The position numbers were made by a program, and so were the translations under genes. From a virus (Duplodnaviria > Caudoviricetes), in the IMG/VR virus record IMGVR_UViG_3300048599_000894, positions 1 to 47,294 of that record: DNA of 47,294 bases; one strand, 5' to 3'. Under the pieces are notes generated by a model. The model made no database searches. It was not told the origin of the DNA and saw nothing but the letters and a program-made list of their open reading frames with translations. Shown piece after piece: positions 17,407 to 38,795 of the stretch (the first letter of the stretch is position 1; the number at the start of each line of letters is the position of its first letter).

Positions 17407-17420
17407 GTTGATTTTGCATT

Positions 17421-17467: not shown

Positions 17468-17476
17468 GAAAAGAGC

Positions 17477-20060: not shown

Positions 20061-20062
20061 TC

Positions 20063-21073
20063 ATGGGTACATCAACTCTAAGAAAAATGCAGTACGGCAA
20101 GGAAACTACGCATGGTACAGCGGTTGCCGCAAATACGTTGCTGCCGATTGCCGTACAGCAAATAAAAGACGACCGCAAGCCGACTTACCCGCGCGAAAAC
20201 GTTGGCGTTTTGGCAAACGCTTCGCGCAGCTATATTTCGGGTCGGATCGTCAAAGACACACTCAAGTGGGATAGCGCTTTTTACCAGCTTCTCCCCCTCA
20301 TACTGAGCTGCGGTGTCAAAGGCGGTTTAACTCCGTCAGAAGTCAATGTCGGTCAGGGAGATTACTCCTGGGCGTTTTCGCCGGCATGGGACGGGACCAG
20401 CAATGCGCAAAACAGTATCACCCTAGAACGAGGCGACAATGATTTTATGGTCGAGACAGAATATGTTATGTTTGACTCGATCAAAATCAGCGGCGAAATG
20501 AACCAGGACGGCGGCGATTCTACTGAAAGCATTGAAGTTAGTTATTTCGGCCGGCAGAACACGGTTACTTCTTTCACGGGCGGTTTGAGCATTCCAGTTT
20601 TGACGCCGATTAACGCAAAGTTGACCAAACTGTACATTGATTCGGCTTGGGCGGATGTAGGCGACACCGAAAAAACGCTCACTTTGCGGTCATATGACGT
20701 TGAAATTCAGACTGGCCTACATCCGAAGTTTCACGGCAGCGGTCAAGAAACTTTCGACAATCACGGCGAAGGCCCCATGTCAATCATGGCTTCTTTTGTT
20801 TTTGAGGGTAACGCCAACGCAGAAGCTATTTACACTGCCAGAGATGCGCAAGCCTTGCAGGTGATTCGTCTGGCGACGACTGGCCCACAAATTGGATCAG
20901 GCGCAAACCACAGCCGTACTCTTGATTTTTCCGGCACGTGGAGCAGCGTGATCCCGCTTTCATCCGAATCCAATGGCAATAATCTTTGGGCGGCAGTCCT
21001 GCAAGGGTTTTACGATCCGACTGGTGCAAAAATGTTTGATATTTCCGTAGTCACGAACAAGAGCGCAATCTAA
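20063..21073 (+). CDS. Major tail tube protein
   Basis: GGAGG RBS at this ATG; QYGKETTHGTAV start; position. Confidence 0.8.
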   Translation: MGTSTLRKMQYGKETTHGTAVAANTLLPIAVQQIKDDRKPTYPRENVGVLANASRSYISGRIVKDTLKWDSAFYQLLPLILSCGVKGGLTPSEVNVGQGDYSWAFSPAWDGTSNAQNSITLERGDNDFMVETEYVMFDSIKISGEMNQDGGDSTESIEVSYFGRQNTVTSFTGGLSIPVLTPINAKLTKLYIDSAWADVGDTEKTLTLRSYDVEIQTGLHPKFHGSGQETFDNHGEGPMSIMASFVFEGNANAEAIYTARDAQALQVIRLATTGPQIGSGANHSRTLDFSGTWSSVIPLSSESNGNNLWAAVLQGFYDPTGAKMFDISVVTNKSAI

Positions 21074-21641
21074 TGAACTTTGATGTCCCCAAAATTACCC
21101 GCCCGTTGCTACTGAGAAATTACGCGCCAGAATTTCCTGCGGATGCGCTTTTGCAAGTTTGGGTGAACCCGCCGCGGAGAATCTTGGAAGTAATCAACGA
21201 AATTGGATCATCCGAACAGCCAGACGCAGAAAAATCGGTGATCCTTTACGCCGAGCTTTGGGGAATCAGCCGGGAAGAACTGCTTAAATTCGTGAATACT
21301 TTCGCGGAAACTGATCCGAGTTTGGTTCCGTGGTGCATGGCTCAAACGGTGTTCATGATTTCCGAACATCGCAACCGGCTAAAAAAAAATTGGATGACGC
21401 CGCTTTTTCCGTGGCGAAGCGAGGAAAAACAGAACTATCCGAACTGAACGACATATTTTTGGCGCATGAACTGAACAGTATTTTGGGAGGGCCATTTTTG
21501 ACCCCGTGGGATGTGCGCAACTTGCCAGAAAGTGAGCTCCTCCCCATACTGAGTATGCGCAAAGTCGCAGAAATCAAAGATAACTTGCAAAAGGTTGACG
21601 CTGAATTTGCAGCGTGGAGAAACAACAATGCCAGAAAGTAA
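21073..21641 (+). CDS. Tail assembly chaperone pair (21073-21447 plus -1 frameshift extension to 21641)
   Basis: A9 run at 21381-21389; overlapping -1 frame ORF ends at the TMP start. Confidence 0.75.
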
Positions 21642-22947
21642 CATCGATATCATTATCAAGTCAAAACAGGAAGGTAACGGCGCTGAAACTACGATTGAAG
21701 ACCTGCAAAACATGAGTCAGGGTTTGACAAATGTTGAAAAGGCCATGGCCGGAACGCGCAGCACCATTGCTGGGCTTGATAGTGATATCAAAGTTTTTGG
21801 CACAAATTTAGGGTCAACCGCCGATCTTTTGGGGGGAATGGGTATCAGCATTCCGGTTACTCCCATGCAGTTATTTGGTCAGGCGCTTGCTACCGCGAAA
21901 AATTTTATTGATGGATCAATTGAATCATATTCTCAGTATGTGGACGAGATGGATAAACTTGCCCAATTTACGGGGATGACAATTGAAGAAAGCAGCCGGT
22001 TATATCAGGTATCAGACGATTTGCGCATCAATACCAACTCATTGGAGCTGGCTCTGCGAACCATGGCTCAAAATGGATTAATTCCAAGCATCGAAGGTCT
22101 GGCACAATTATCTGACCAGTACACCGCGATTCAAGATCCTGTTACCCAGGCGCAATTTTTGATTGATCAATTTGGAAGCCGGGCTGGCGCAGAAATGGCC
22201 CGCATGATGGGTATTGGTGGAGATGCAATTCGCACTGCTGCGGCCGGCATTGATGATTACATGGTTGTCACAGGAAAATCAAGAGATGAAGTAGATCAAT
22301 ACCTGCAAACACAGGACAAATGGGAAGAAACGCTCGGGCAAATAAATTACATGCTGGCAACAGCGTTTTTACCGGTGTTGACCGATCTTTTGAATTTGAT
22401 CATGGACACCGACGAAGAAAATCAGAATGGTGTTGCGCAATGGATGCGTTATATTCCGGTGCTTTCCCAAGTGCGCGAGGCTTTTATTTTTGTCCGGCAA
22501 GTTATGGGGCTGGGAACCGATGACATTGATACTCAAGCCAACGCAATCAACAGCACTGCTAACGCATGGGACAATGCCACAAACGCGGCAAAAACCTATA
22601 ACGGTTATGTTTCCGGTACTCGCGGGAATCTATCTGACCGGCCAGGATATGGCAGTATCTACGATGAGGGATACGTACACCCAACTTATTCCGCACCAAC
22701 TGGCAGCGGTCGCGCCCAAGGCGGGGAAGTATTTCCGGGCGTGAGTTATCCGGTAGGTGAGCGGCAGGTAGAAATGTTTACCCCCTCAGTGCCTGGATAT
22801 ATTTCACCCAGCGCGCAACCACAGCAAAACATTATTTTTAACTATCAGCCGGCCGTCAGTTTAGCCGATGAAGCCGAAGCGCAACGTGTTTTGACTCCGT
22901 ACATCATGGAGGCTTTGCGCAGCAAGGGGCTGAGTTATGGCTACTGA
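21628..22947 (+). CDS. Tape measure protein (short)
   Basis: GGAG RBS; helical; C-terminal RAQGG..YPVGE..EMFTP motif. Confidence 0.82.
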   Translation: MPESNIDIIIKSKQEGNGAETTIEDLQNMSQGLTNVEKAMAGTRSTIAGLDSDIKVFGTNLGSTADLLGGMGISIPVTPMQLFGQALATAKNFIDGSIESYSQYVDEMDKLAQFTGMTIEESSRLYQVSDDLRINTNSLELALRTMAQNGLIPSIEGLAQLSDQYTAIQDPVTQAQFLIDQFGSRAGAEMARMMGIGGDAIRTAAAGIDDYMVVTGKSRDEVDQYLQTQDKWEETLGQINYMLATAFLPVLTDLLNLIMDTDEENQNGVAQWMRYIPVLSQVREAFIFVRQVMGLGTDDIDTQANAINSTANAWDNATNAAKTYNGYVSGTRGNLSDRPGYGSIYDEGYVHPTYSAPTGSGRAQGGEVFPGVSYPVGERQVEMFTPSVPGYISPSAQPQQNIIFNYQPAVSLADEAEAQRVLTPYIMEALRSKGLSYGY

Positions 22948-24442
22948 TCTGTACGGTACGCAACTATACGGTCAAGGCATTTACGGCCAACCGGTTACAA
23001 CTTCTCAGCTCTGGGCGCTAGAAATTGATTGGGACGGTGATAATCGACTTACTGGAACCAATGAAGCTGCTTTGATGATTGATGCAACTGTAAGCCGCGG
23101 CAGAAAATATCTGCTTAACTCATCGTCAAACGGATTCGAACCGGTCGAAATGGGTTATTTGACAGTGACTTTAGACAATGACGACGACCGATATACTCCG
23201 CTTAATGTACTGAGCGAATTATACCCAAACGTCCGGCCAGGCGTAAAAGTTGCGCTGCAAACCCGCGCGGGCGCGTCTGGTACAAAATACCCAGTATTCA
23301 CCGGGCGGATTGACGATATTCAACCATCTTCAAACACTCAGCCTAAAAATGTGCGTATATCCATAGTTGACGGTCATAAGTGGTTAAAAGACCAAGATAT
23401 TACCATAGATATACAAGAAAATATCAGTATCGATGACGCTATCTCCCTCATACTGAGCAACGCCGAATACCCATATCCAACATCAATCGAGGCATCCAGT
23501 GATAATTTGCGCTATTGGTGGGTAGATGAAAAAAACGCACGTAACGCGATTCAAGAATTAATCGATGTCAATCTTGGAACGTTTTTTGTTGCCGCAGATG
23601 GAACCGGTAAATTCTATGCGCGTAGTCACTATGCCGCTGATGTTTTGACATTTACGCAAGGCGATTTAAATAAAGATATATCCACGCGTCAACCGTGGGA
23701 AGTCATCAAAAATGTAATTAAGATTACAGGTTATCCGCGCACGCAAACAGCAACAGCAGATTTGTGGCAATTATCTGATACGCCATATGTTGGAGCCGGG
23801 GAAGATCTTGAAATTTGGGCCAGTTACAACAATCCGGCAATCAATATCATTACGCCAGTAGCGACCACAGATTTTACAGTCAACACGCTTTCGACGGGCA
23901 GCGGAACAGATTTAACTGCGAGCTGCACGGTCAGCATTGAAACCTATGCAAAATCGGCAAAAATAACCTTGCATAATGGCGCTGCTCAGCCTGGGTATGT
24001 AACGCTTCTAAAAATTCGGGGAGATGCAATTGTTTCACCTTCGCCAGTACAGGCCCAGGCAACAGACGATACCAGCAAGGCACTTTATGGCCCGAAGAAA
24101 TTTAGCATTGATTCTGACTGGCTGCAAGATACCAATTTCATTGTTGATATGGCGAATTCGCTAATTCAAAATTTGGTTAATTCACAAATTTACCCAACGA
24201 TTACTTTGCAGCATCGTTCAGATGTTCAGTTTTCTCTGGATTTATTTGACATCATTACCTTGATTGTCAATAAATATTCGATCAATGGGAGTTACCAGGT
24301 TAGTTACATTGAACATAAATGGTTAACCGATAATGGGCAAGATGTTAAAACCGTGCTGCGGCTTGAGCCGGTGAGCTTGCTCTCTACTGAGCGCTGGCAA
24401 TTTACGACTGAGATTGGATTAACCAGCCGGTTTAGCTTCTAA
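22937..24442 (+). CDS. Tail tip/hub protein
   Basis: Follows TMP; VFTGRIDD, GTFFVAADG. Confidence 0.75.
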   Translation: MATDLYGTQLYGQGIYGQPVTTSQLWALEIDWDGDNRLTGTNEAALMIDATVSRGRKYLLNSSSNGFEPVEMGYLTVTLDNDDDRYTPLNVLSELYPNVRPGVKVALQTRAGASGTKYPVFTGRIDDIQPSSNTQPKNVRISIVDGHKWLKDQDITIDIQENISIDDAISLILSNAEYPYPTSIEASSDNLRYWWVDEKNARNAIQELIDVNLGTFFVAADGTGKFYARSHYAADVLTFTQGDLNKDISTRQPWEVIKNVIKITGYPRTQTATADLWQLSDTPYVGAGEDLEIWASYNNPAINIITPVATTDFTVNTLSTGSGTDLTASCTVSIETYAKSAKITLHNGAAQPGYVTLLKIRGDAIVSPSPVQAQATDDTSKALYGPKKFSIDSDWLQDTNFIVDMANSLIQNLVNSQIYPTITLQHRSDVQFSLDLFDIITLIVNKYSINGSYQVSYIEHKWLTDNGQDVKTVLRLEPVSLLSTERWQFTTEIGLTSRFSF

Positions 24443-24451
24443 GGTGAAAAA

Positions 24452-24808
24452 ATGGCAGAGATTATTACGGCACTAACTATTGCAAAACGGGACGGATGTT
24501 TGACATCTCGTGAATGGATTGAAAAAGCCGCAAAACGGTTTAACAAAAAAGTTGACTTGAAAAAAATTTCCGGCGAACTTATTGCAGCGCGGATCGATTT
24601 CGGTCGCTGGGTTTGTGATTGCGAATGCGGCGGCGCTGAATACGTTGACCCGGCTGACCCGGTATTTTACTGCATGAGCTGCGGAAATACTCAGTATGGG
24701 GGGGTATTGCGGCCGGTCGTGTTTCCCGAAAACCGTGAAGAAATTGAAGCGCCGATTGTGGCCGGAAAATATCATAGCTGGAAACCAGAGGTGACCAATG
24801 GCCTATAA
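24452..24808 (+). CDS. Zn-binding protein in the tail module
   Basis: CDCECGG..CMSCG. Confidence 0.6.
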   Translation: MAEIITALTIAKRDGCLTSREWIEKAAKRFNKKVDLKKISGELIAARIDFGRWVCDCECGGAEYVDPADPVFYCMSCGNTQYGGVLRPVVFPENREEIEAPIVAGKYHSWKPEVTNGL

Positions 24809-25433
24809 CCCTGTTCCGACCGTTGCGACCGGTGATTTATGGACGGCCAGCAACCATAATACCTATATCCGCGACAACTTTGCGGCCGGCGTACCGGATA
24901 TTTTTACCGCGGCCGGCGATTTAGCAATTGCTTCGGGCGCAAATGCGGCGACAAATTTACCAATTGGTTCCAGCGGTCAGGTTTTGCAGGTTATTGCTGG
25001 TTTACCTGCATGGAATGGTGCTGATGGTTGTTTAGTAAGAAAATCAACTGCTCAGTCTATTTCAAATAATGTTTTACCAACAGCAATTTCGTCTTTTGAC
25101 ATTGAGTCATGGGATTATAACAGCTATCACTCTGGATCAGATGGTTATATAACAGTACCCGAAACTGGAATTTATACGGTTCAAGTTGGTGCTTTTTTTA
25201 CTGGACATGCAACCGTTGGAACAAAACGAGCAATATATGTTGGGACACCAACTTTAAGTTATTACTCAGTAAATAGTTATTCTCAGCCAGATGGTAGTTA
25301 TCAGGTTGACATGATTGCTTCATTTACGGGTCTATTTAATGCTGGTCAACAACTTACATGTCTTGTCGCTCAATTAAGTGGATCAGCAATTAATATTAAT
25401 GCCCCATATTTGACAATTGCAAGAATCAAATAA
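24798..25433 (+). CDS. Tail fibre with C1q/TNF-like C-terminal domain
   Basis: LPIGSSGQVL fibre motif; FDxExWD..YITVPETGIY. Confidence 0.7.
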   Translation: MAYNPVPTVATGDLWTASNHNTYIRDNFAAGVPDIFTAAGDLAIASGANAATNLPIGSSGQVLQVIAGLPAWNGADGCLVRKSTAQSISNNVLPTAISSFDIESWDYNSYHSGSDGYITVPETGIYTVQVGAFFTGHATVGTKRAIYVGTPTLSYYSVNSYSQPDGSYQVDMIASFTGLFNAGQQLTCLVAQLSGSAININAPYLTIARIK

Positions 25434-25447
25434 TTTTAAGGTGAATT

Positions 25448-26290
25448 ATGGCTTACCCAACATCACTTGACAGTTTTACCCACAAAGTTAATGACTTTGA
25501 TACTTTCATGGCTGAGGATGTGAATGAATTGCAGGATGCCATTGAAGCTATTGAAGCCGAATTGGGAACAACGCCGAAAGGAAGCAGCGCGGATGTGGCT
25601 GCCCGATTTGCAGCGCTTGATACCTTGCTTGGGTCAAACCCGCAAAGTATTTACGCTGATTTAGCTGCCAGGCTAACCGGGTATGATAGCGGGTGGATCA
25701 ATTTGCCTACCTGTACTTATGTCTCAGCGACTAGCTTTACTTTAACGGGTGATTGGACGACAAAGCTTAAATTAGGCGTGTATTGGGGTGGATATAACGG
25801 CAGCCAAAAATACGGTTACGTTTTGTCCAGCACGTACTCGGCGGGCACTGGTTTGACTACGGTCAACCTGGTGGCTAATACCAGTTATAGTCTGGCAAAT
25901 GCAGCAATCACGGGATCAAAATTCGCGTACAGTCCGCCGCCGGATTTTAAAAATTGGATGTCATACGCGGCCGTTCTTTATGTTGATTCAGGTACTTTTA
26001 CCAGTGCATCGGCAACCGGAAAATTTAAAGTGCATGGTAAAACATGTGAGGTTGCCCTGTCTGCGTCAGTCGTAACAAACGGAACAGCGGTTGGGCTAAA
26101 AATATCTGTTCCTTTTACAAGTGCCGGAGTGTTTATTTTTAACGGTCGCGAGAACCAGATAACCGGAGTTACTCTGCAAGGAATTTTATCCAACGGGTCA
26201 GATAGGATATCGATTTACAATTATGCTGGTAGCAACATAAATGCGAATGGTGTGACAGTCTACATGAATGGGTTTTTTGAAATAGCGTAA
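25448..26290 (+). CDS. Tail fibre / receptor-binding protein
   Basis: AEDVNELQDAIEAIE anchor; beta-rich C-terminus homologous to 42218-42955. Confidence 0.75.
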   Translation: MAYPTSLDSFTHKVNDFDTFMAEDVNELQDAIEAIEAELGTTPKGSSADVAARFAALDTLLGSNPQSIYADLAARLTGYDSGWINLPTCTYVSATSFTLTGDWTTKLKLGVYWGGYNGSQKYGYVLSSTYSAGTGLTTVNLVANTSYSLANAAITGSKFAYSPPPDFKNWMSYAAVLYVDSGTFTSASATGKFKVHGKTCEVALSASVVTNGTAVGLKISVPFTSAGVFIFNGRENQITGVTLQGILSNGSDRISIYNYAGSNINANGVTVYMNGFFEIA

Positions 26291-26371
26291 GAAAATCTTG
26301 GCAAGAGGATCGTACGCAATTTAACCCGATTTTCGCCGTTGGATATCAGCAGGAAAAATTACAGGTGACTT

Positions 26372-27319
26372 ATGAAATTAATTGTCGATGCAGCTTACCA
26401 CCAGGACAAAATTGATTTTGGTCTTTTGAGACCATTTGTTGACGGTTTTATTTTCCGCGCAAACTACGGGACGTTCGCAGACCCTAAATTTGTAGAACAT
26501 GTCAACCGTGCTGTTGACGCTGGATTTAAGCACATTGGCCTATATAGCTTCCTGCGGCCAGACCAGGATATCAAAGCTCAGATTGACGTGATGCGCGGAC
26601 AGTATAACAAGGTCCCGTTCATTCGTTTCACGTCCAGCGACCAGGAACAGCACGGTCATACCTATCTGAACTTACCGCCGTACTACTCGCCAGATAAATT
26701 ATCCAGCCTGGGGCACCAGCACATTGAGGCGCTGGCTACACTGGGCCTGCGTCAGTCAATCTATACCCGCACAACCTGGGTGGATAGCTACGCAAAGCCG
26801 GCTTACAAGTGGATGCAGGATTATACCGTCTGGCTGGCAAGCTGGCCCTACAAGACCGGTGTTGTCTATACTGACTGGCAAACGCTGATAGATGTATATG
26901 CGCCGAAAGCGTTTGCGCCTTACCGCACGGCTGAATCAAAAAAATACGCGCTGAACGTTGGCTTGTGGCAGTGGTCGGGTGATAAATTTACGCTTCCGGG
27001 AATCTACGGGGCGGGCGGCAAGCTATCGGCGGTTGATCTCAATTTTGTAAGTGATGATATTTTTTCGCTCATGGAAACCGGAACGTACTCCCCCCCTCCT
27101 ACTGAGGAAGCGCATGAAATTTGGAAAAATAATTTGGCTGTTCTCAGTATGGTGGTGAGAGACGCACCTACTACAAAAGGCACCGATACCAAAGAGCGGA
27201 TAAAACTCGGCCAAACTTTTCCGGTCTATGAAAAGAAAACAGCGGATGGTTACACTTGGGGCAGGATCGACCCCACCGTCAGCAAGTGGGTTGCGCTCAA
27301 GTGGTCTGCAAAGGTATAG
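26372..27319 (+). CDS. Endolysin, GH25 muramidase plus SH3-like domain
   Basis: D..HQ..IDF, DQE, IYT, VWLASW, LWQWS, VDLN; VRDAP..GYTWG..WV. Confidence 0.85.
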   Translation: MKLIVDAAYHQDKIDFGLLRPFVDGFIFRANYGTFADPKFVEHVNRAVDAGFKHIGLYSFLRPDQDIKAQIDVMRGQYNKVPFIRFTSSDQEQHGHTYLNLPPYYSPDKLSSLGHQHIEALATLGLRQSIYTRTTWVDSYAKPAYKWMQDYTVWLASWPYKTGVVYTDWQTLIDVYAPKAFAPYRTAESKKYALNVGLWQWSGDKFTLPGIYGAGGKLSAVDLNFVSDDIFSLMETGTYSPPPTEEAHEIWKNNLAVLSMVVRDAPTTKGTDTKERIKLGQTFPVYEKKTADGYTWGRIDPTVSKWVALKWSAKV

Positions 27320-27327
27320 GGGGGAAC

Positions 27328-27645
27328 ATGGCTCAAATAACCAACGCACAAATTTACGACGAACTGGCGAAGCTAACGCAGACAATTGGCGCGTTTGATG
27401 CGTTGGCTCAACGTGTTGAAGAACACGAACATTTCATCAATGGAAATGGTAAGCCCGGCCAGAAAGTGCTGAACAACCAGTTCGATGAACGGTTAAAAAC
27501 AATGGCAAATAACATTGAGCGCCTTGAAAAGACAGTTGAAGGCATGCAGGAAATGATCAAGAAATTTACGATTGGCGTTGCAACTGCCGGGCTGGTGTGG
27601 ATTTTATTTACCGTATTGCCGGATTTGATCAAATTGATTCCATAA
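27328..27645 (+). CDS. Coiled-coil plus C-terminal TM protein (lysis accessory)
   Basis: G-rich RBS; lies between lysin and holin. Confidence 0.65.
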   Translation: MAQITNAQIYDELAKLTQTIGAFDALAQRVEEHEHFINGNGKPGQKVLNNQFDERLKTMANNIERLEKTVEGMQEMIKKFTIGVATAGLVWILFTVLPDLIKLIP

Positions 27646-27653
27646 GGAGAAAC

Positions 27654-28010
27654 ATGATGAATATTGAATTGTTTTTAGATGCCGCTGTTAGCGGTGTGCC
27701 CCTGCTGTTTGTGGTATGGGGCGTTGTGCAGATTTTCAAGCTGTTCAAACGGCCGGATGGAAAGCCGCTTTTCAGCGGCAATCTGCTGTTAATTCTGTCA
27801 TTCGCCTGGGGCCTGCTGATTGGCAGCGGATATATGATCTTCATGACGCGCCCGCCGATTTCTGCCGATTGGTGGCCGGTGTATGGATACTGGTTTGGTG
27901 TATTGATCTACGGGATTTCCCTAGGCATACTGGCTGCGGTGTTCTGGGAGGCGCTCAAAGCGATTGTTGATAAGGCGGTGGCGAAGCTGATCGAGAAAGC
28001 GCAAGTGTAA
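27654..28010 (+). CDS. Putative holin (3 TM)
   Basis: AAGGAG RBS; three hydrophobic helices; charged C-terminus. Confidence 0.7.
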   Translation: MMNIELFLDAAVSGVPLLFVVWGVVQIFKLFKRPDGKPLFSGNLLLILSFAWGLLIGSGYMIFMTRPPISADWWPVYGYWFGVLIYGISLGILAAVFWEALKAIVDKAVAKLIEKAQV

Positions 28011-28012
28011 TG

Positions 28013-28041
28013 AAAAAAAGCCCCAGTAATTGGGGCTTTTT
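28013..28041. terminator. Bidirectional intrinsic terminator
   Basis: A7-GCCCCA-GTAAT-TGGGGC-T5 between convergent genes. Confidence 0.9.
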
Positions 28042-28045: not shown

Positions 28046-28519
28046 TTATTGTTTCCGCGGCCGTCCGCCCAGCTTTCCGTTTTCGCGCACCGCCGCCGCC
28101 TTGCGCGCGCTGGTTGCCTTACCGCCCTTGCGGCCCATCATTCGCGCCGCCGCCCGTCTGGCCTCTGCCTCCTCGCGGATTTCCGCAAGCTCCATTTTTG
28201 CGGCGCGGCGTTCGTCTTCCATGTCCATTCCGCAAATCGCGGTAACAATGCGATCCTGCACCTCGTCCTTGTCCAGGTCGTACTCCTCGACTAGTTCCGC
28301 GACCTCGTCCTCGGTCGCCTGCATCCCCTTGATGTACTCGACCCACCAGTCGTATGAGGCCTGGTCCGCCGCGTACAGGTCCTCGTCTCCGACCTGCACA
28401 AACTGTCCGTTGGTCAGCTCGCCGACGTTTCCCATCAGGTCGTGGATCCAGTTGATGCCGTTCTTATCGATGACGTTGAGTTCTTTAATCTCGCCGGTTT
28501 CGTTGATTTTTACCTTCAT
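28046..28519 (-). CDS. Acidic protein with basic KGG/AT-hook-like C-terminal tail
   Basis: AAGGAG RBS; D/E-rich body; GRKGGKATS..ENGKLGGRPRK. Confidence 0.8.
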   Translation of the reverse strand: MKVKINETGEIKELNVIDKNGINWIHDLMGNVGELTNGQFVQVGDEDLYAADQASYDWWVEYIKGMQATEDEVAELVEEYDLDKDEVQDRIVTAICGMDMEDERRAAKMELAEIREEAEARRAAARMMGRKGGKATSARKAAAVRENGKLGGRPRKQ

Positions 28520-28535
28520 GGTTTTCTCCTTTTTT

Positions 28536-28588
28536 CGCTCATTCAGGCCGGGCCGATTTCCCGACGACGCCCTTGCGGGCGTTTCGCG
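28536..28588 (-). ncRNA. Hammerhead ribozyme, type II, core-insertion variant (copy A)
   Basis: CGC-GAAAC-GCCC-GCAA-GGGC-GUC / GUCGGG-AAAUCGG-CCCGGC-CUGAAUGA-GCG. Confidence 0.85.
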
Positions 28589-28594
28589 TACTGG

Positions 28595-28789
28595 TTATTG
28601 ATTGGCTTCGTTAGCTGATTCAACTATATTTTCGTATTCAAGCTGGATTTTTTTAATCCATTCTGAAACTTCCTCGATGGTGTCCAGGTCATTTTCTTTC
28701 TGGCTAATAGAAAATCCGTAATGACTCATCCACGAAAAAAGGATATGGTATCCGCCAGCTGTTTTTTGAATATCAATTTCTGTGTTCAT
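28595..28789 (-). CDS. Small acidic protein
   Basis: AAGGA RBS; bounded by the two ribozymes. Confidence 0.7.
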   Translation of the reverse strand: MNTEIDIQKTAGGYHILFSWMSHYGFSISQKENDLDTIEEVSEWIKKIQLEYENIVESANEANQ

Positions 28790-28805
28790 TTCATTTTTTC
28801 CTTTC

Positions 28806-28855
28806 GTTCGCTCGTTCAGGCCGGGCCGTCTTCCCGGCGACCGGGTTTCGCGTAC
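28806..28855 (-). ncRNA. Hammerhead ribozyme, type II, core-insertion variant with minimal stem III (copy B)
   Basis: GUACGC-GAAAC-CCG-GUC / GCCGGG-AAGACGG-CCCGGC-CUGAACGA-GCGAAC. Confidence 0.8.
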
Positions 28856-28897
28856 TAGTTTGTCTTCCGGTCTTTTTCCCGTTCGGCAGGGGGTTGA

Positions 28898-29284
28898 TTA
28901 CAGGATCGCGATTGCTTTCGCGTTGCTAATAACGATTTCGCCGTAGTCCTCGCCGCCCTCAGAGTTTTCCCCGATCACCAGAGCAATATGATTGCCGTAT
29001 ATCTCGGCGTTTTTCGCGTGATTCTTGATGTTTTCGATCACAACTTCGGCGTCTTCCCATGCCCAGTTTCCAGCGATCAGCAGTGCGCAGGTTCCGTTAA
29101 GTTTTTCGTCAGTATATTCCCCGTCGTTCCATACCGAGCTGTTTTCAAGATTGCCGATTTCGATCTCTTCCCAGGAGGAGCGCACACCAACCGGACCGCT
29201 GAAATCAGCGCCGATCACGCTGTTTATCAGTTCAATAAATTTTTTCGGGTCGTTGATCAAGTTTTTGAAGTTGATGTTTTCCAT
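28898..29284 (-). CDS. Acidic hypothetical protein
   Basis: AGGAG RBS; first gene after the consensus promoter. Confidence 0.8.
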   Translation of the reverse strand: MENINFKNLINDPKKFIELINSVIGADFSGPVGVRSSWEEIEIGNLENSSVWNDGEYTDEKLNGTCALLIAGNWAWEDAEVVIENIKNHAKNAEIYGNHIALVIGENSEGGEDYGEIVISNAKAIAIL

Positions 29285-29323: not shown

Positions 29324-29352
29324 AGTATAACCTAAGCGTTTAGGTTTGTCAA
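29324..29352 (-). promoter_or_regulatory. Near-consensus sigma70 promoter with palindromic operator
   Basis: TTGACA-17 bp-TATACT; AACCTAA-N4-TTAGGTT covers the spacer. Confidence 0.88.
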
Positions 29353-29397: not shown

Positions 29398-30282
29398 CTA
29401 AATTCGCCAGTTATCCACTGGGCTTGATTTTCGATGCGCTTCAGCAATATCGGCCTGTGAAATCTTTAGATAATGCCGGACCATAACTAAAGATGAATGA
29501 CCCAAAAGTTCTTGAAGCGTGAAAATATTTCCCCCATTGCGCAAAAATTCAATCGCAAATGTGTGGCGGAACCGATGAGGATGAACGTTGGGAATTTCAG
29601 CCCGGGCAGCAATACGGCGTAAAATATTCCGTGCCTGGTAACGATCCAGGAAACGACCTTCATTTGTAGCCAGCAATGGCGCCGATTTATTGATTAAATC
29701 ATTCCGAGAAGATATATATTCCCATAAAGCATTTTTTGTTATTCTTCCAAAACGGACTTCCCGCGGGCGGCTTTTCGTCGAATTGTGAAACGGCCTAACA
29801 ATCGCTTTGCCTTCATTTATATCCACGTCGCCGACTGTCATCCGAGTGGCCTCACCAATCCGCAAACCGGTGTCCAGCAAAAATAAAATTATGGCTTTAT
29901 CTCGTTTTGTTTTGCAGGATTTAATTAGTCTGGATGTTTCATCTTTAGTAAACGGAATTATTGCCCTGGTTTCGGCTCGCGGCATGGGGATATCATCTAC
30001 CCCCCCTATACTGAGTACATCCGAAGCCCAATTGTAAAATGTCCTGATTGTGCGCCAATAGGCTTGTATAGTGGATTCTGACCGGCCAGTGTCACGTAGC
30101 TCCTGGAAAAAATCAGTTATATTTTCTCGAGAAATTGAATCAACTTGCGGATTATTGATTGCTTTGCAAAAAATTTGCATGAACCGCTTGTAATTTGATG
30201 CAGTTATTGGTGAATAATTATTAGAAGATAAATAAATATAGAATCCTTCAATAGCTGTTTGCAAATCCATTTTTTTCCTCAC
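29398..30282 (-). CDS. int: Tyrosine integrase (start probably ATG 30270)
   Basis: TGLRIGE, HPHRFRH, LLGH, Y catalytic residues; N-terminal SAM-like domain. Confidence 0.93.
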   Translation of the reverse strand: MRKKMDLQTAIEGFYIYLSSNNYSPITASNYKRFMQIFCKAINNPQVDSISRENITDFFQELRDTGRSESTIQAYWRTIRTFYNWASDVLSIGGVDDIPMPRAETRAIIPFTKDETSRLIKSCKTKRDKAIILFLLDTGLRIGEATRMTVGDVDINEGKAIVRPFHNSTKSRPREVRFGRITKNALWEYISSRNDLINKSAPLLATNEGRFLDRYQARNILRRIAARAEIPNVHPHRFRHTFAIEFLRNGGNIFTLQELLGHSSLVMVRHYLKISQADIAEAHRKSSPVDNWRI

Positions 30283-30348
30283 AGATGTGATTGTTTTTTA
30301 GACAAGTATCACTTCTGTGATTGAAATTGAAACGGATGTTATTACTTG

Positions 30349-30422
30349 TGGGCGGGACAGGACTCGAACCTGCGACCCCATCTGTGTAAGAGATGTGCTC
30401 TAACCAACTGAGCTACCCGCCC
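30349..30422 (-). tRNA. tRNA-Val(TAC); probable att site of prophage 1
   Basis: GGGCGGG acceptor, GCTC/GAGC D stem, CATCT-CTTACAC-AGATG, GCAGG-TTCGAGT-CCTGT; followed by CAA, not CCA. Confidence 0.96.
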
Positions 30423-30473: not shown

Positions 30474-30522
30474 CTCTTACACAGCTAGTATCACAGGTTC
30501 GAGTCCTGTCCCGCTCCCACAA
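30474..30522 (+). repeat. Inverted, diverged copy of the tRNA-Val 3' half (att-like)
   Basis: CTCTTACACAG..CAGGTTCGAGTCCTGTCCCGC.CCCACAA matches the tRNA from anticodon loop to 3' end, opposite strand. Confidence 0.85.
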
Positions 30523-30525
30523 AAG

Positions 30526-30637
30526 TATATATCAAGCATTTTTTTTCCAGATATGGTATAATTAAGTAAGAATAGAGATATAAATTATCTCGATTTTTTA
30601 TATATCACGCATTTTTTTTGCCAGTATGGTATAATTA
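30526..30637 (+). promoter_or_regulatory. Tandem 39-bp repeats, each ending in an extended -10 (TGGTATAAT)
   Basis: TATATATCA(A/C)GCATTTTTTTT..CCAG.TATGGTATAATTA at 30526-30564 and 30599-30637. Confidence 0.75.
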
Positions 30638-30747
30638 TATTAGATAGTAAGAGAGCCGCTTTGCAGCGGTTTTGTCGTTTAAGCCAACAAACACACATAG
30701 CGGAGGTGTAAAGGTTTAGTGTAAGTAGGTTTTTCGCAAGAGTCATA

Positions 30748-31161
30748 GTGCAATCAGAGTTTAATAGTACGAGTAGAGCAAAACAATTACTGGACTTTAA
30801 TAATCTCATAGATGGTAACTTAGGCGCGAGTGATATTGATGCTATTGTCGATTATCACAACTCGTTGTGGATAATTACAGAGGTTAAGCTGCTAGGTAAG
30901 GATGTACCGTTCGGTCAAAATTTGATGTTAAATCGGCTAGCCGCTGACCTGGAGAAAACAGGTAAACCAGTATTGTTGATAGTCGCAGAACATAACATAT
31001 TAGACGCTAATGAAAATATAGTATTGAAAGATTGTATAGTTAGAAACTATAAAATAAAAGGGGAGAGACATACTCCTAAGCGAACTGTCACAGTAGGAGA
31101 GTTTGTTAATGCTTCCATAAAAATTTTGGAAGCTAAAAAATTAGCACGGGAGCCTAAATAA
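30748..31161 (+). CDS. PD-(D/E)XK-fold nuclease (VRR-NUC/resolvase-like)
   Basis: SDIDA..ITEVK..GQ pattern. Confidence 0.65.
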   Translation: MQSEFNSTSRAKQLLDFNNLIDGNLGASDIDAIVDYHNSLWIITEVKLLGKDVPFGQNLMLNRLAADLEKTGKPVLLIVAEHNILDANENIVLKDCIVRNYKIKGERHTPKRTVTVGEFVNASIKILEAKKLAREPK

Positions 31162-31162
31162 A

Positions 31163-31339
31163 ATGAATATAAATTTAACTGAAAATGAAAAAAAAGAAGT
31201 TGAGATTATTACCCTGGGGGTTAAATGCAAGAAGTGTGGTCATACCTGGGGTGTTCGATTAGACAAGCAAAAGAGTTTGGATAACTTATCTCCGTTACTT
31301 TTTGTTTGTGAAACTTGCTTAAAGAATAACAATAATTAG
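31163..31339 (+). CDS. Zinc-ribbon protein, 58 aa (not in ORF track)
   Basis: Manual translation MNINLTE..CKKCGHTW..CETC. Confidence 0.65.
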   Translation: MNINLTENEKKEVEIITLGVKCKKCGHTWGVRLDKQKSLDNLSPLLFVCETCLKNNNN

Positions 31340-31362
31340 TTTTTACTGAATAGGAGTTTGGT

Positions 31363-32136
31363 ATGAATACAAGTTTTGAAAGTACAATTAAATCGGTTAC
31401 GACTGAGAATGTTATACCAGTTCGCAAAGAAGTAGTACAAATTTGTGCTGGTGGTGCTAAAGAGGCTCTGTTACTAACACAGTTAATCTACTGGACGGAT
31501 AGAGCAGCACCAAAAAATTGTGGTTGGGTATTTGAGTCACTTCCAGAGTTAAGCTCTCAACTAGGTTTATCTATACAATCAATTCGCAGCGCTGCAAAAA
31601 ACTTACTAGCACTCGATTACATTGAGACTAAGACCTACATAGCTAAGGGACATAATACCACCTGGTATAGAGTCAAGCAGGCTAACATACTAGAGGCTAT
31701 TAAGCAGCTTGAGCAACCAGTTACAACTGGAATTCACCTGTTAGAATCAACAGATGAAATCATCGAAAATAGTGAGCACCTGTTAGAATCAACAGATGCA
31801 CCTGTTAGAACTAACATGAGCACCTGTTGGAATCAACAGACTCTAAACATAGCCTTTACAGAGCCTACACATAGCTTTAATAATAAAGACTACGAAAACT
31901 CAAAAAACGAGTTTTCTCCGTCTGGGGGTCTCGCTACCGCTCAACCCCCTGTAATATCTCAACCAGATATTATTGAAATAGAAGAAGAACAACCAGTTGA
32001 TTTTACTTCTATGTTTGTTAATTCTAATGAGGGTGATAACCCTTTTCTAGATGATGCTCCTACGGAGCAAACTTATCAAGATTTAACTTCTCTCGCAGAG
32101 AGACTATTAAAACAGAGGGAGCAACTTTCTGTCTAA
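31363..32136 (+). CDS. Replication initiator (wHTH, lambda O-like architecture)
   Basis: ALLLTQLIYW..GWVFES..EL..LGLS..IR..L; internal iterons. Confidence 0.8.
   Translation: MNTSFESTIKSVTTENVIPVRKEVVQICAGGAKEALLLTQLIYWTDRAAPKNCGWVFESLPELSSQLGLSIQSIRSAAKNLLALDYIETKTYIAKGHNTTWYRVKQANILEAIKQLEQPVTTGIHLLESTDEIIENSEHLLESTDAPVRTNMSTCWNQQTLNIAFTEPTHSFNNKDYENSKNEFSPSGGLATAQPPVISQPDIIEIEEEQPVDFTSMFVNSNEGDNPFLDDAPTEQTYQDLTSLAERLLKQREQLSV
31735..31842 (+). repeat. Four 22-bp iterons inside the initiator gene (origin)
   Basis: CACCTGTTAGAATCAACAGATG-like units at 31735, 31777, 31799, 31821; internal CTGTT/AACAG symmetry. Confidence 0.85.
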
Positions 32137-32185
32137 AAATTAACATAGTTGGGGCGGCCAACTACAAGTATTAGATACAATATAC

Positions 32186-32572
32186 CCTTTTAAGCGGTTT
32201 ATAGGTAACAGTGGGAATCTTATACCTATTTTATTATTATTCTCATTACAACCCCGCTAGAGGTTAATCTAGCAGGATTTAACATAATGAATAACGAACA
32301 AACAACTCAAGAATTAGTTTATGACCTTGTTAAGCAGTATGTAGCGGAGCAAAAAGGCAAAATAGCCTTCAAATGGTTAGTAGCATTGTGTGTAAATAAT
32401 ATATTGTGGTTAGTTTTCTATCTACTCAGATAGATTGCACCACAAGTAATAGAAGCAACATGGCCTTTTAAGGCGTTTATTTTATAATAGTAGTACAAAT
32501 ATACAAATTAAATAGTAATGCCCCTTAAAACCCGTCTATGAGGCTCTACAGGGCATTACAGGAGTTAACATG
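32186..32572 (+). repeat. Degenerate ~100-bp leader duplication ahead of two small ORFs
   Basis: CCTTTTAAG..GTTTAT / TATAC / AACCC..CTA.GAGG / CAGGA.TTAACAT blocks in the same order at ~32186-32289 and ~32464-32572. Confidence 0.55.
32287..32433 (+). CDS. Small membrane protein, 48 aa (not in ORF track)
   Basis: AGGA RBS; MNNEQTTQE..ILWLVFYLLR. Confidence 0.5.
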   Translation: MNNEQTTQELVYDLVKQYVAEQKGKIAFKWLVALCVNNILWLVFYLLR

Positions 32573-32800
32573 ACTGAGATAGTGTTCAAGAATTATATTG
32601 TTGATACTAAAGCTAAGACTTGTGCAGTTTGTGGGAAGTATATTACCCCAACTTTTGATTTATGTAAGGAGTGTGAAGCATATAAAAATGAGGATTGGTG
32701 CAAAGAGTTAGTTAAGATTGAAAAGCGAAATTATTACCTGAGAAATCGTTATGACCCTATCCCATTTGACTTTAACTTTCTTGATAAAGAGGATATATAA
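32570..32800 (+). CDS. Zn-finger protein
   Basis: AGGAG RBS; CAVCG..LCKEC. Confidence 0.7.
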   Translation: MTEIVFKNYIVDTKAKTCAVCGKYITPTFDLCKECEAYKNEDWCKELVKIEKRNYYLRNRYDPIPFDFNFLDKEDI

Positions 32801-32880
32801 CGCATTTTATCTCGTAGATTAGCTGTAGTAAGTGACGATGTGTAACAGAAATATTGGTACAAAATAGCGGAGGGGCTATC

Positions 32881-33648
32881 ATGAATAAAATAACATGGAG
32901 CGAGCAAGAAGATTCGCTTCTTTTAAATTTAAGAAACAAAGGTATTCCTTATACAGAATTACTAGAAGTATTTCCTTCTAAATCACAAGATGCACTTAGA
33001 AATAGATTTTATATTTTGAATAAGAAAAGCAGATTGAATTTTGAGAGAGATGCTAGAGTTCTGGTATTAGATATAGAAACTAGTCTAATGGTTTTTACAG
33101 CTTTTTCCACTGGACATAATTATTTAACAGATAGAAACATAGTTTCAGACTTTTTTGTAATGAGTTGGGCTGCAAAGTGGTTGAATGAAGCTGATTATTT
33201 CTCAGCGGTACTAACACCAAAAGAAGCTAAGTCAAAAAATGACAAAAGAATTTTGAAGGAATTATTACCATTATTAAATGAAGCTGACTTAGTTGTCTAT
33301 CACAACGGTGATAAGTTTGATGCCAAAAAATTGAATACTAGATTTATTTTTCACGGGTTAGATATTCCAGAATATAAAGGAATTGACACACTAAAACTAG
33401 CGAGAAAACATTTTAGTTTTTCATCTAATAAGTTGGACTATATTTGTAAGTTTTTAGGTTTACCGGCAAAAAGTGAACACTCAGGCTATGAAACCTGGTT
33501 GAAATGTTTAGCTGGTGATGCAGAAGAGTTAAATACATTAGTCAAATATAACGAGAATGATATTTTTATTCTAGAAACTTTGTATAACCGTATAAAACAG
33601 GTTGTAAAAATTAGAAAACCTAGAACTGGTTGGAAAAATGATGATTAA
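32881..33648 (+). CDS. Myb/SANT-like HTH fused to DEDD (RNase H-like) 3'-5' exonuclease
   Basis: GGAGG RBS; WSEQEDSLL..KSQDALRNRF; LDIETS, HNGDKFD, YNENDI. Confidence 0.82.
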   Translation: MNKITWSEQEDSLLLNLRNKGIPYTELLEVFPSKSQDALRNRFYILNKKSRLNFERDARVLVLDIETSLMVFTAFSTGHNYLTDRNIVSDFFVMSWAAKWLNEADYFSAVLTPKEAKSKNDKRILKELLPLLNEADLVVYHNGDKFDAKKLNTRFIFHGLDIPEYKGIDTLKLARKHFSFSSNKLDYICKFLGLPAKSEHSGYETWLKCLAGDAEELNTLVKYNENDIFILETLYNRIKQVVKIRKPRTGWKNDD

Positions 33649-34318
33649 AGGATGTGATATTTCATTCTGGCAGGGGGAAATTAATTTTAGGAATTTAGAA
33701 AAAGAAAATAAGTTTGTTGGTATAAGGGTAGGTCAAGGTGCGTGGATAGATTCACAAGTAAGAAAATATGCTGCTAAAGTCTCAATACCACATTTGTATT
33801 ATTGGTTTTACGAGTATAGAAGTGGCTACCAAAATAACCCCGATGTGCAGTTCAAGCTGATGAATGACTTATTAGGCGAGATTGGGGAAGAAACTGCTAT
33901 TGTGTGCCTAGATTATGAGAGACCAAACACGAATTGGGAACCATTACCTAGCCGAGAGAATAGCTTAAATATAATTGAAAAGTTTGGGAATAAGTTTTAC
34001 AAGAATAAGAAACTAATATATGGAAATTTAGACTTATTGAAAAATACATTGAGAAATGACATACCCGATTGGGTGAAACAAAATTTTGATTTTTGGTTAG
34101 CTTATTATCCGAGTACATCTACAAATTATGAACCGAAACTCACAGACCTACCCTTAACTGTCTGGAAACCTACAATCTGGCAATACGGTTATAAAACCGC
34201 AAAAGATATAGCCAGTGGTTCTAGTGTATTAGATGCAGACGTATTCCCAGGTGACTTTGATACATTTTTCTCTATAAAGAAATGGTATCAACTCTACCTG
34301 CCATTTATAAAACGCTGA
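33638..34318 (+). CDS. GH25 muramidase endolysin
   Basis: DISFWQG, CLDYE, FWLAYY, IWQY, LDADVF. Confidence 0.88.
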   Translation: MMIKGCDISFWQGEINFRNLEKENKFVGIRVGQGAWIDSQVRKYAAKVSIPHLYYWFYEYRSGYQNNPDVQFKLMNDLLGEIGEETAIVCLDYERPNTNWEPLPSRENSLNIIEKFGNKFYKNKKLIYGNLDLLKNTLRNDIPDWVKQNFDFWLAYYPSTSTNYEPKLTDLPLTVWKPTIWQYGYKTAKDIASGSSVLDADVFPGDFDTFFSIKKWYQLYLPFIKR

Positions 34319-34352
34319 ACTTGAAGCGTAAAAACAAGGGAGAAAATAAAAT

Positions 34353-34757
34353 ATGAGTGACAATCCTGAAACAGATTCAACGGTAGAAAGTCCGGTAAAA
34401 AATGACACTGAAAAATTGTTTTCACAGGAAGATTTAAATAAGTTAGTCTCAGAGCGGGTTAAGCGAGAACAGGCCAACTCTCGCAAGGACAAAGAGGATT
34501 TTGATAATAAGTTGAAATCTCTCTCAGAAACCCTCAGCGGCTATGAGGAAGCTCTGAACAAACTACTTGAGGAAGTTGAGAATGAACTTGACCCCTCAGT
34601 TAAAAAATTACTGGACAAACTCTCACCATTAGAAAGATTGGAATGGTTAGGTGAACGTAAGGGGGATAAAGGTGGAAAGAAACCAATTCCTCAAACTGAG
34701 AAACCAAACACTGGTGAGGGTACACCGGATACTAAAAAGTATCCACGAGTATTATGA
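34353..34757 (+). CDS. Capsid scaffold protein
   Basis: FSQEDLNKLVSERVKRE motif; coiled coil. Confidence 0.78.
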   Translation: MSDNPETDSTVESPVKNDTEKLFSQEDLNKLVSERVKREQANSRKDKEDFDNKLKSLSETLSGYEEALNKLLEEVENELDPSVKKLLDKLSPLERLEWLGERKGDKGGKKPIPQTEKPNTGEGTPDTKKYPRVL

Positions 34758-34765
34758 GGTTATAA

Positions 34766-35167
34766 ATGACTGCTTATACAATTAATGACAATGCTTCCTT
34801 GGAGGTCAACTCTAGCATGGTGGCGGTAAGAGTTAATGGTTTGTTTGCTGGTGAGGCCATTGACGCGTTTGCTCCCTGCTATATTGATTCCGACGGAACT
34901 GTAAAAATGGCTGTGTCAACGCAGCTAATTGTTGTGTCTGGTGATAAGACTGATTTTATCGGTTTTGCACCGAGAGAGTATGCTAATGGCGAAGCGATTA
35001 CCTTGTTCGGCAAGGGTGCAAGATTCTGCTATTCCACGTCTATGACCCCTGGAAGCTATCTCTACATTGGCTCAGAGGCCGGTACTCTCGTAGATGCTGC
35101 TGTGGTTGAGGGTGATGACCCTGTAGCCGTTGCACTCACTTCTACTGATGTTTTGGTTACTCGCTAG
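34766..35167 (+). CDS. Head decoration/cement protein
   Basis: AGEAI..CYIDSDG; lies between scaffold and MCP. Confidence 0.68.
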   Translation: MTAYTINDNASLEVNSSMVAVRVNGLFAGEAIDAFAPCYIDSDGTVKMAVSTQLIVVSGDKTDFIGFAPREYANGEAITLFGKGARFCYSTSMTPGSYLYIGSEAGTLVDAAVVEGDDPVAVALTSTDVLVTR

Positions 35168-35178
35168 GAGGTGATAAG

Positions 35179-36234
35179 ATGACTACGGGTATTTATTCAC
35201 TTGAAGATTTACGTGCTGTAAAATATGCTTCCGCGGCTGAATTTGGTTTAGATACGATTAACAAGACCTTGCAGGCTGAGTTAGCTAACTACAATGCTCA
35301 GATGCGTGAACAAATGATGCTGCTGGCCGAACCGCTGACTGAACAGTCCAGAATTTATGGGACGTCTGGTATCGCGCTAATGGCTGAGGTCGATGAATTT
35401 GGCAAGGGCGTTTCTCAGAAAGATAGTGTGGGTGTTACCGTTAGCTTCCCGCTGAAAGTGTTTGCTGCTGCGTTAGGCTGGACGGAAAAACATTTACAGA
35501 TGGCTACACCTGCTGAAATGGCCGAGAAAATGATTAAGGTCCAGAAGGGTTATGCTGCTGCGGTTACTAAAGCGGTTAAACAGGCTATCTTTAATAACAC
35601 TAACTATAACTTTACCGACCATTTGGTCAATGGGGTTACTTTAGGTGTGAAACGCTTGATTAACGCGGATGGTTCGGTTATCCCCAATTCTCCCTCTGGT
35701 GCTACCTTTGATGGTTCCACACATACGCATTACTTAGCTAGAGCGGCTGCCTTAGCTAACAGTGACATTGATGGTGCTATCTCTACGGTTACAGAGCACG
35801 GTAATACACATGGTTTAAAGATGTTCGTCAACTTGAGCAACAAAGCGGCTGTGACTGCTTTATCTAAGTTCAAAGCGCTTGACTCTGCTTTACTGGCTTA
35901 CAGTGGTGTTACTTCTACAATTACCAAACTCAATACCAATGATTTTGAAAATCAGATGATTGGCTATTGGGATGGTTATGTGGAAGTGTGGGTTAAACCC
36001 TGGGTTCCGGCTAACTATATCCTTGTGGCAGCTACTGAGGAACCAGAAAAGTTATTGGGTTATAGAGAGTTACCTCAACCGTCTATGCAGGGCTTGAGAA
36101 TTGATGCTCCGTTCGGTATCGCTCCGTTAGTTGCTCAGAATGCTGAGGCTATCTTTGGCTTTGGTGTCTGGAATAGATTAGCTGGTAGTGTGCTGTACAT
36201 TGGTGGCACAACCTGGACTAATCCAACTATTTAA
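35179..36234 (+). CDS. Major capsid protein
   Basis: AGGAGG RBS; size and position; followed by a terminator. Confidence 0.8.
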   Translation: MTTGIYSLEDLRAVKYASAAEFGLDTINKTLQAELANYNAQMREQMMLLAEPLTEQSRIYGTSGIALMAEVDEFGKGVSQKDSVGVTVSFPLKVFAAALGWTEKHLQMATPAEMAEKMIKVQKGYAAAVTKAVKQAIFNNTNYNFTDHLVNGVTLGVKRLINADGSVIPNSPSGATFDGSTHTHYLARAAALANSDIDGAISTVTEHGNTHGLKMFVNLSNKAAVTALSKFKALDSALLAYSGVTSTITKLNTNDFENQMIGYWDGYVEVWVKPWVPANYILVAATEEPEKLLGYRELPQPSMQGLRIDAPFGIAPLVAQNAEAIFGFGVWNRLAGSVLYIGGTTWTNPTI

Positions 36235-36239
36235 CAAAG

Positions 36240-36267
36240 TAAGGGAGGCTAACAACCTCCCTTTTTT
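36240..36267 (+). terminator. Intrinsic terminator
   Basis: AAGGGAGG-CTAACAA-CCTCCC-T6. Confidence 0.85.
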
Positions 36268-36282
36268 ACTAACGGAGGTAAC

Positions 36283-36639
36283 ATGACACTTACAGAGTAT
36301 ATCCCCGCTTACATGGGTGAGTTATATACTTACTTCAATTGGGGAGAGACACAAATTAATTTTATTATCTCCGAAACTCTGCTTAACTATGGTGTAGATA
36401 CAGAAGCTAAAGCTACTGATAAGACTAAGCTGTATAAACTGTGTAAAATAGAAATTTGGAGAAAAGCGGTAAATGACTGTGTTCAAAAGTTTAACTTCTC
36501 TGCTGATGGGGCTAATTATTCAGAATCTCAAGTTTACGAGCACTGCAAAGAACAGTATTTTCAGGCAATAGGTGATGTTGAGCTAACAGTAACAGAGATA
36601 ACTTACAATAACCCTTACGCGTGGAATAGATGGGGGTGA
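36283..36639 (+). CDS. Putative head-tail adaptor
   Basis: GGAGG RBS; position; FSADGANYS. Confidence 0.6.
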   Translation: MTLTEYIPAYMGELYTYFNWGETQINFIISETLLNYGVDTEAKATDKTKLYKLCKIEIWRKAVNDCVQKFNFSADGANYSESQVYEHCKEQYFQAIGDVELTVTEITYNNPYAWNRWG

Positions 36640-36998: not shown

Positions 36999-37002
36999 CC
37001 TC

Positions 37003-37658: not shown

Positions 37659-37659
37659 A

Positions 37660-38061: not shown

Positions 38062-38082
38062 TAGCATTGCTTAATAAGAAAT

Positions 38083-38107
38083 AAGGGGGTTTAATCACCC
38101 CCTTTTT
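38083..38107 (+). terminator. Intrinsic terminator
   Basis: AAGGGGG-TTTAATCA-CCCCC-T5. Confidence 0.82.
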
Positions 38108-38156
38108 CAATTACTTCCGATTATACCCATAAATCAGAAGTAAAAATGGAGGGAGA

Positions 38157-38791: not shown

Positions 38792-38795
38792 TTAC

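Follow-up and report, generated by a model that had tools for sequence, protein, structure and literature searches.

Two type II hammerhead motifs with an inserted core adenosine at the gene junctions of a three-gene prophage unit

We report that the window, i.e. the whole 47,294-nt stretch of viral DNA that was analysed, from a record classed as a provirus, carries on its minus strand a compact unit of approximately 1.3 kb, which runs from a promoter-like site through ORFs of 128, 64 and 157 aa to a hairpin terminator and holds a type II hammerhead motif in each of its two intergenic gaps. A tyrosine integrase lies on one side of the unit and convergent late genes on the other. The features are, in the direction of the minus strand:

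29398..30282, minus strand: tyrosine integrase, directly upstream of the unit (PF00589, E 2.4e-32)
29324..29352, minus strand: promoter-like site of the sigma-70 type, TTGACA-17-TATACT (11/12 consensus matches), predicted start of the unit
28898..29284, minus strand: ORF1, 128 aa, unknown function (phrog_18666, unknown function, E 5.5e-9)
28867..28872, minus strand: GACCGG, complement of CCGGUC (28844-28839), predicted to pair over the copy 1 cut site
28809..28852, minus strand: hammerhead copy 1, type II, core CUGAACGA (A6a), stem III only ACCCGGU, predicted cut 28839/28838
28799..28804, minus strand: AAAGGA, SD-like, for ORF2 (from the sequence)
28595..28789, minus strand: ORF2, 64 aa, orphan, 35% GC, on the predicted 273-nt middle fragment 28838-28566
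28536..28588, minus strand: hammerhead copy 2, type II, core CUGAAUGA (A6a), 6-bp stem III with GCAA loop, predicted cut 28566/28565
28526..28530, minus strand: AGGAG, SD for ORF3 (from the sequence)
28046..28519, minus strand: ORF3, 157 aa, acidic body of unknown function and basic C-terminal tail (about residues 123-156)
28015..28041, listed on the plus strand with a minus-strand T run: hairpin with A/T runs on both sides, likely a bidirectional terminator

The promoter scan is weak by itself (4 sites found vs 4.0 expected), and the terminator scan gave 3 sites vs 3.6 expected. The promoter is 89% identical over 82 nt in contig L012, where the next gene is unrelated, and a promoter pattern search matched this contig only. 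The search for relatives of ORF1 returned only ORF1 itself among 8 candidates, and that for ORF2 only itself (1 candidate), with nothing below E 0.02 in Pfam and PHROG; the protein atlas gave no usable family for ORF1 or ORF3. Relatives of the integrase show 25-30% identity. Nine loci on viral contigs have ORF3 relatives that match in the tail only, none of them with a ribozyme of the subfamily described below, and the 13 weak matches in the annotated phage collection (E 0.03 or worse) were uninformative. The basic tail is common to unrelated proteins: a C-terminal stretch of approximately 34 aa (window 28046-28150; L012 1955-2060; P0005, P0006, P0009 and P0010) ends many unrelated phage proteins as well as DUF2442 proteins, and it may represent a portable DNA-binding tail.

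Both gaps contain the elements in the order GAA, stem III, GUC, stem I and CUGA..GA, closed by CGC/GCG. Copy 1 (minus strand, 28852-28809) reads CGC / GAA / ACCCGGU / C17 at 28839 / GCCGGG-AAGACGG-CCCGGC / CUGAACGA / GCG and copy 2 (minus strand, 28588-28536) CGC / GAA / ACGCCC-GCAA-GGGCGU / C17 at 28566 / GUCGGG-AAAUCGG-CCCGGC / CUGAAUGA / GCG. Loops close stems I and III while stem II is open, i.e. the topology is type II, and G12 A13 A14, the A15.1-U16.1 pair and an NUH cut site (GUC) are present in both copies. A structural descriptor matched twice in the window compared with a mean of 0.095 in 200 dinucleotide shuffles, none of which gave two matches; a chance origin was therefore rejected, and both hammerhead motifs are real. 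The initial annotation had placed a type II hammerhead in each gap, and sequence, descriptor and stem covariation (see below) all support the order of elements that it gave. Recomputing the coordinates returned the same predicted cuts, the same 273-nt middle piece and the same distances from the cuts to the next ATG (49 and 46 nt), while the difference in stem I that it had described, G-C vs G-U, is found at the second pair.

The motif had been written as CUGA..GA, which gives the order correctly and passes over the length of the core: in both copies the core has 8 nt, with one extra A relative to the 7-nt CUGANGA consensus, and neither copy thus has the seven-nucleotide core C3 U4 G5 A6 N7 G8 A9. 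The insertion (CUGA-A-N-GA) matches a published variant with an insertion after A6, named A6a, which was reported to be of low activity in another ribozyme (PMC3088659). With the Rfam model RF02276 (Hammerhead_II) copy 2 scored 28.2 bits (E 0.0033), below the gathering value of 37, and copy 1 was not listed. The folding z-scores of the motifs are insignificant (-0.66 to -0.98). Our own model R1 found two copies and no third in the window; a likeness at 27060-27092 was rejected as a further copy, being located inside the endolysin gene and lacking stems. The purine-rich 3' tails contain no complement of the loop I sequences AAGACGG or AAAUCGG that could form a loop I-to-3' tail pseudoknot, which is a majority feature of type II and not a universal one.

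Copy 2, with stems of 6, 3 and 6 bp, folds as drawn, and forcing the hammerhead fold costs 0.2-1.2 kcal/mol. For copy 1 the cost is 6.0-9.7 kcal/mol: stems I and II are intact, stem III has just 2 bp and a 3-nt loop with a predicted pairing probability of 0.0, and in the minimum-energy folds (60 and 100 nt flank) the upstream GACCGG pairs across the cut site. The ACCCGGU of copy 1 can self-pair in register around a central C-C mismatch (predicted dimer, -5.4 kcal/mol); stem III of copy 2 is not palindromic, so copies 1 and 2 would be unable to form a tandem dimer. Among the contigs discussed below, run X2 covers the short stem III of copy 1 without an insertion and a contig of run X1 has a longer stem III, and hence copy 1 looks derived and shortened rather than the result of an assembly error.

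A scan that left the core open returned 39 loci; 11 contigs carry the 15 distinct copies that proved real, of which 14 are canonical and one is A6a. These 15 were aligned together with the two copies of the window, L033 and two copies from the flanks of L182. In the resulting 20 copies, which were chosen by patterns and a pairing filter that favours high pairing, 99.7% of 297 cells are paired and 11/15 pairs show double changes, compared with 0/500 shuffles as high and 25-39% paired in slid controls. Judged from the alignment, the structure of this subfamily is under selection and its stems covary. Loop I is a conserved 7-mer of the AANNNGG type; no tertiary partner for it was identified in the subfamily, and a 3'-tail pseudoknot was not evident across the 20 aligned copies, the near-identical copy in L012 (L299) having 3 bp at most. 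The layout is fixed (stop, ribozyme, SD, start) and the downstream genes differ: the distance from cut to start codon is 42-55 nt in 16/19 copies (3/19 have no SD-bearing ORF by the rule used) and that from the upstream stop to the cut 27-39 nt in 17/19. Only 2/17 genes of the subfamily arrays have Pfam matches, one being ArdC-N. In L045 (1495-7774) six and in L182 (480-2568) three canonical hammerheads of the subfamily form arrays in which every copy precedes a different small gene, and the L182 array includes the ArdC-N gene.

To what extent A6a recurs was addressed by scans with and without the insertion. With a relaxed stem II there are, among the matches listed (54/64 parts), at least 16 distinct well-formed A6a hammerheads in 18/119 loci; with C, G or U inserted at the same position there is one irregular, doubtful case among the 120 loci listed (21/64 parts), against about 19 predicted if each letter were equally frequent, and a doubling of U7 was not seen among the matches listed in this control. 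With stem II restricted to CGC/GCG, 3/26 loci in the viral scan are real A6a hammerheads and the matching canonical scan gave 59 distinct canonical hammerheads in 118 loci and their flanks; the C/G/U control for this class had 0 clear cases of 27, with L204 and L216 borderline. L004 matched the descriptor elsewhere in its sequence and was discounted as a chance match. None of 5 loci in the genome contigs was a structured hammerhead, and in the metagenome scan 1 of 4 loci (L033) was real. In L033 (minus strand, about 1740-1720) a sequence CTGACGA...GCCGAAAC located upstream in the operon resembles a second hammerhead, of type I or III.

Many of the A6a copies, among the matches listed, retain the loop I-to-3' tail pseudoknot, copies with different stems I and III retain pairing and every other core base, and in records G006 and G008 A6a copies occur alongside canonical-core matches. 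Given that the copies with A are well formed and those with C, G or U near absent, that pseudoknots are retained and that records are shared with canonical copies, the comparative data identify A6a as a specific, recurrent and tolerated variant and not as a decay accident. Slippage that doubles A6 could contribute to it. Most subfamily members from the core-unbiased scan are canonical (14 vs 1), and A6a could for this reason be a tolerated defect that is not tuned.

The initial annotation had the two ribozymes split the operon into single-gene mRNAs. The motifs do lie between single genes; clean cutting is doubtful, given the low activity of A6a, the fold cost of copy 1 and RNA-library contigs that bridge cut 2. 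Part of the unit was found in 14 runs and half of it in none; six runs were compared, all as contigs, and X4-X7 and X9-X12, with small shares, were left out. Contigs of relatives from two studies (X8 record 24 and X13 record 4) span cut 2 unbroken, with 31 or more letters on either side. The relatives to which they belong carry a different upstream gene, and the contigs can be explained by incomplete cleavage or by DNA. Run X14 gave an empty result, which, like the missing cover of ORF2, carries no weight. The extra A of copy 2 is uniform among the relatives aligned to it, with no deletion or gap in 6/8 contigs covering the core, 5 of them clearly readable.

Full activity of both ribozymes, with the message divided into three single-gene mRNAs, is consistent with the low fold cost of copy 2 and with the A6a copies that retain full stems and pseudoknots across many phages. 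Moreover, three tandem arrays were cleaved efficiently in vitro and one in E. coli (PMC3088659); an in-register stem III dimer is predicted for copy 1, and hammerheads with a short stem III are known to cut as dimers (PMC6155905). Against this stand the low activity reported for A6a (PMC3088659), the predicted lack of pairing in stem III of copy 1 with its high fold cost and the contigs that bridge cut 2, and we regard full activity of both copies as unlikely.

It had also been suggested that the 64-aa ORF is released on an RNA that RtcB could circularise, a suggestion for which we found no support. The corresponding explanation, that the purpose of the ribozymes is to excise the 273-nt ORF2 piece for circularisation by host RtcB or by ribozyme ligation, fits in so far as the excised RNA would have 5'-OH and cyclic-phosphate ends and includes an SD and the whole ORF. 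However, it depends on cleavage at both sites, of which that in copy 1 is the weaker, RtcB was not found in the 47-kb record, and contig L012, with only one ribozyme in this framework, would be unable to excise a circle. No back-joint, i.e. circular junction, is present among the contigs listed, none of which covers ORF2. In other tandem arrays no circular or spliced products were detected (PMC3088659). Excision of a circle appears highly improbable.

Could cleavage serve as a switch and open the ribosome-binding site downstream? In both copies the SD follows the 3-bp stem II at 4 to 5 nt, a spacing that is fixed in the subfamily. Over 12 settings, however, the cost of opening the site changes upon cutting by only -1.0 to +0.2 kcal/mol in copy 2 and by -0.1 to +1.9 kcal/mol, i.e. 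towards less open, in copy 1. Cleavage-gated translation was therefore rejected as unsupported by the computed opening costs, and there is very little to recommend such a switch.

The small effect of cutting on access to the ribosome-binding site would also be expected if the motifs were catalytically dead descendants of hammerheads, retained only as a ribosome-binding-site module and recombination repeat, and the non-canonical core of both copies with scores below the Rfam cut-off, the degraded state of copy 1 and the uncut contigs point the same way. A dead module should, on the other hand, accept any insertion, yet A is found (at least 16 distinct) and not C, G or U (0-1) among the matches listed; A6a copies that differ in stems I and III maintain pairing and the remainder of the core, and low-level activity has been reported for A6a (PMC3088659). 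Loss of catalysis in both copies is accordingly quite improbable in our view.

The repeats had been proposed to allow cassette swapping, and a comparison of cassette content in relatives agrees with this proposal: promoter, ribozyme and tail are kept and the genes differ. Besides the promoter, L012 has a single ribozyme, also A6a and near-identical (91% over 78 nt), its first gene is unrelated and its last gene shares only the basic tail, and compared with window 10000-28000 (18 kb) the L012 record has just one 342-nt match. ORF1 is replaced by other sequence both in L012 and in the contig of run X1, where 267 other letters take the place of 377 between the promoter and copy 1, and other contigs diverge from the ribozyme into different genes on either side. 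In the sequences compared, the fixed parts are thus promoter, ribozyme and C-terminal tail, from which we infer probable recombination at these three places.

Several other features of the record were recorded. The repeat ATACTGAG with a C-rich 5' side occurs in 20 copies, on both strands and mostly inside genes, vs 1.0 expected; the copies span window 855-38315, with 19/20 within 855-30015. Record G002 (41 kb, holding L189) has 25 copies and four other records 0-3, and the repeat looks like a genome-wide protein-binding or recombination site. The GC content is 0.44-0.52 in window 1-30400 and 0.36-0.39 in 30500-47294, and there are two sets of terminase, portal and endolysin genes; at the border between these two parts lie a tRNA-Val (30348-30422, minus strand) and, inverted and degenerate, a copy of the 3' part of this tRNA (30474-30522). 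These features suggest that two proviruses are joined in the record. Just past the tRNA fragment, two 46-nt direct repeats (30526-30644) are 83% alike, each with a TATAAT-like element, and three to four iteron-like direct repeats of 21-24 nt (31731-31840) are located inside a replication-initiator-like gene. A tRNA-Asp with anticodon ATC predicted by ARAGORN at 1272-1350 does not reach the Rfam cut-off and is possibly a pseudo-tRNA.

Taken together, we consider it on balance probable that the A6a type II motifs cut the three-gene prophage message slowly and partly, likely to a greater extent at copy 2 than at copy 1, and serve as conserved gene-exchange junctions, catalysis being predicted from sequence. 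Cleavage after GUC would leave a 2',3'-cyclic phosphate on the upstream piece and a 5'-OH on the downstream piece; the latter would begin directly with the 6-bp stem I hairpin and might be shielded from 5'-end-dependent decay. RNase E and RppH need single-stranded 5' ends and 5' hairpins stabilise RNA, while RNase J1 can degrade the 5'-OH glmS product (PMC3997798), and cutting could consequently destabilise rather than protect. The initial annotation had further proposed that ribozyme punctuation tunes stability or stoichiometry, which it conceivably may. With a slowed core, a mix of full-length and cut messages would be expected and not clean single-gene mRNAs, and copy 1, as the derived copy with a shortened stem III and a predicted misfold, may cut little or only conditionally. 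Tertiary contacts could restore the cutting speed, and slow phage variants are possibly activated conditionally (both suggested in PMC3088659).

More tentatively, and with considerable doubt, A6a hammerheads might form an overlooked and widespread group of phage ribozymes whose cutting is deliberately slowed or switched on conditionally and which, mixed with canonical copies in arrays of accessory genes, set the fraction cut at each junction; the part comprising ribozyme and ribosome-binding site would then be the recombination hub of a natural plug-and-play expression cassette, and copy 1 would be a further damped form that the upstream anti-helix switches. Should the cutting rate of A6a copies be tuned, searches that rely on the 7-nt core and the Rfam cut-off would overlook some phage hammerheads (for one stem II class about 5%, 3 vs 59 distinct), and "defects" of the core would be regulatory settings. 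With one promoter, three genes, two ribozymes, one terminator and natural swap variants, the unit is a convenient test case; reviews call the role of hammerheads in bacteria and phages an open question (PMC6765202, PMC6155905).

The idea of ribozyme punctuation, the arrangement and its proposed purpose are not new and have been known since 2011: Perreault et al. described tandem hammerheads that flank single genes in prophages, proposed processing into single-gene mRNAs and showed cleavage for three arrays (PMC3088659), and punctuation of phage polycistronic RNA is a published model (PMC3088659, PMC6765202). Our analysis adds three points: in type II hammerheads of phages A6a recurs and is specific for the inserted letter; one subfamily lacks the pseudoknot and has a conserved loop; and relatives give direct comparative evidence that genes are exchanged around the ribozyme. 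In the open-access literature we found no paper treating A6a beyond Perreault et al. 2011 (PMC3088659), and nothing on a pseudoknot-free subfamily or on gene exchange around the ribozyme; the available parts of PMC11300833 and PMC7151607 do not mention A6a. On a tentative reading of its layout, supplement 6 of PMC3088659 (active variants) shows, in a model from a marine metagenome, a string which read in reverse fits CUGAAUGA; five strings had no match in 11 supplements.

As in clustered prophage hammerheads, the copies described here flank single small genes with an integrase nearby. They resemble the arrays in Clostridium scindens, Azorhizobium caulinodans and Agrobacterium tumefaciens in being type II, in tandem around small non-conserved genes and beside an integrase, and the ArdC-N gene of subfamily array L182 has a counterpart in the ardA of those arrays (PMC3088659). 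They differ from these in having A6a in both copies, a 2-bp stem III in copy 1 and a conserved 7-nt loop with no loop I-to-3' tail pseudoknot, and in that relatives document gene exchange across the ribozyme. The one extra A after A6 is shared with the published variant (PMC3088659, Fig. 5 text; active-variant Fig. S6), which there is among the rare low-activity variants, whereas here one scan gave it in at least 16 distinct type II phage hammerheads. Rfam RF02276 has the same order of elements and a likeness in the sequences of stems I and III, unlike which copy 2 scores below gathering and copy 1 is undetected. The engineered RiboJ insulator self-cleaves upstream of a ribosome-binding site and leaves a 5'-OH mRNA end. 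The glmS ribozyme is alike in both respects, the motifs in the window are predicted to be so, and compared with RiboJ and glmS the new 5' end here would start directly with a hairpin. Unlike the present motifs, glmS is ligand-gated and sends its mRNA to RNase J1 (PMC3997798).
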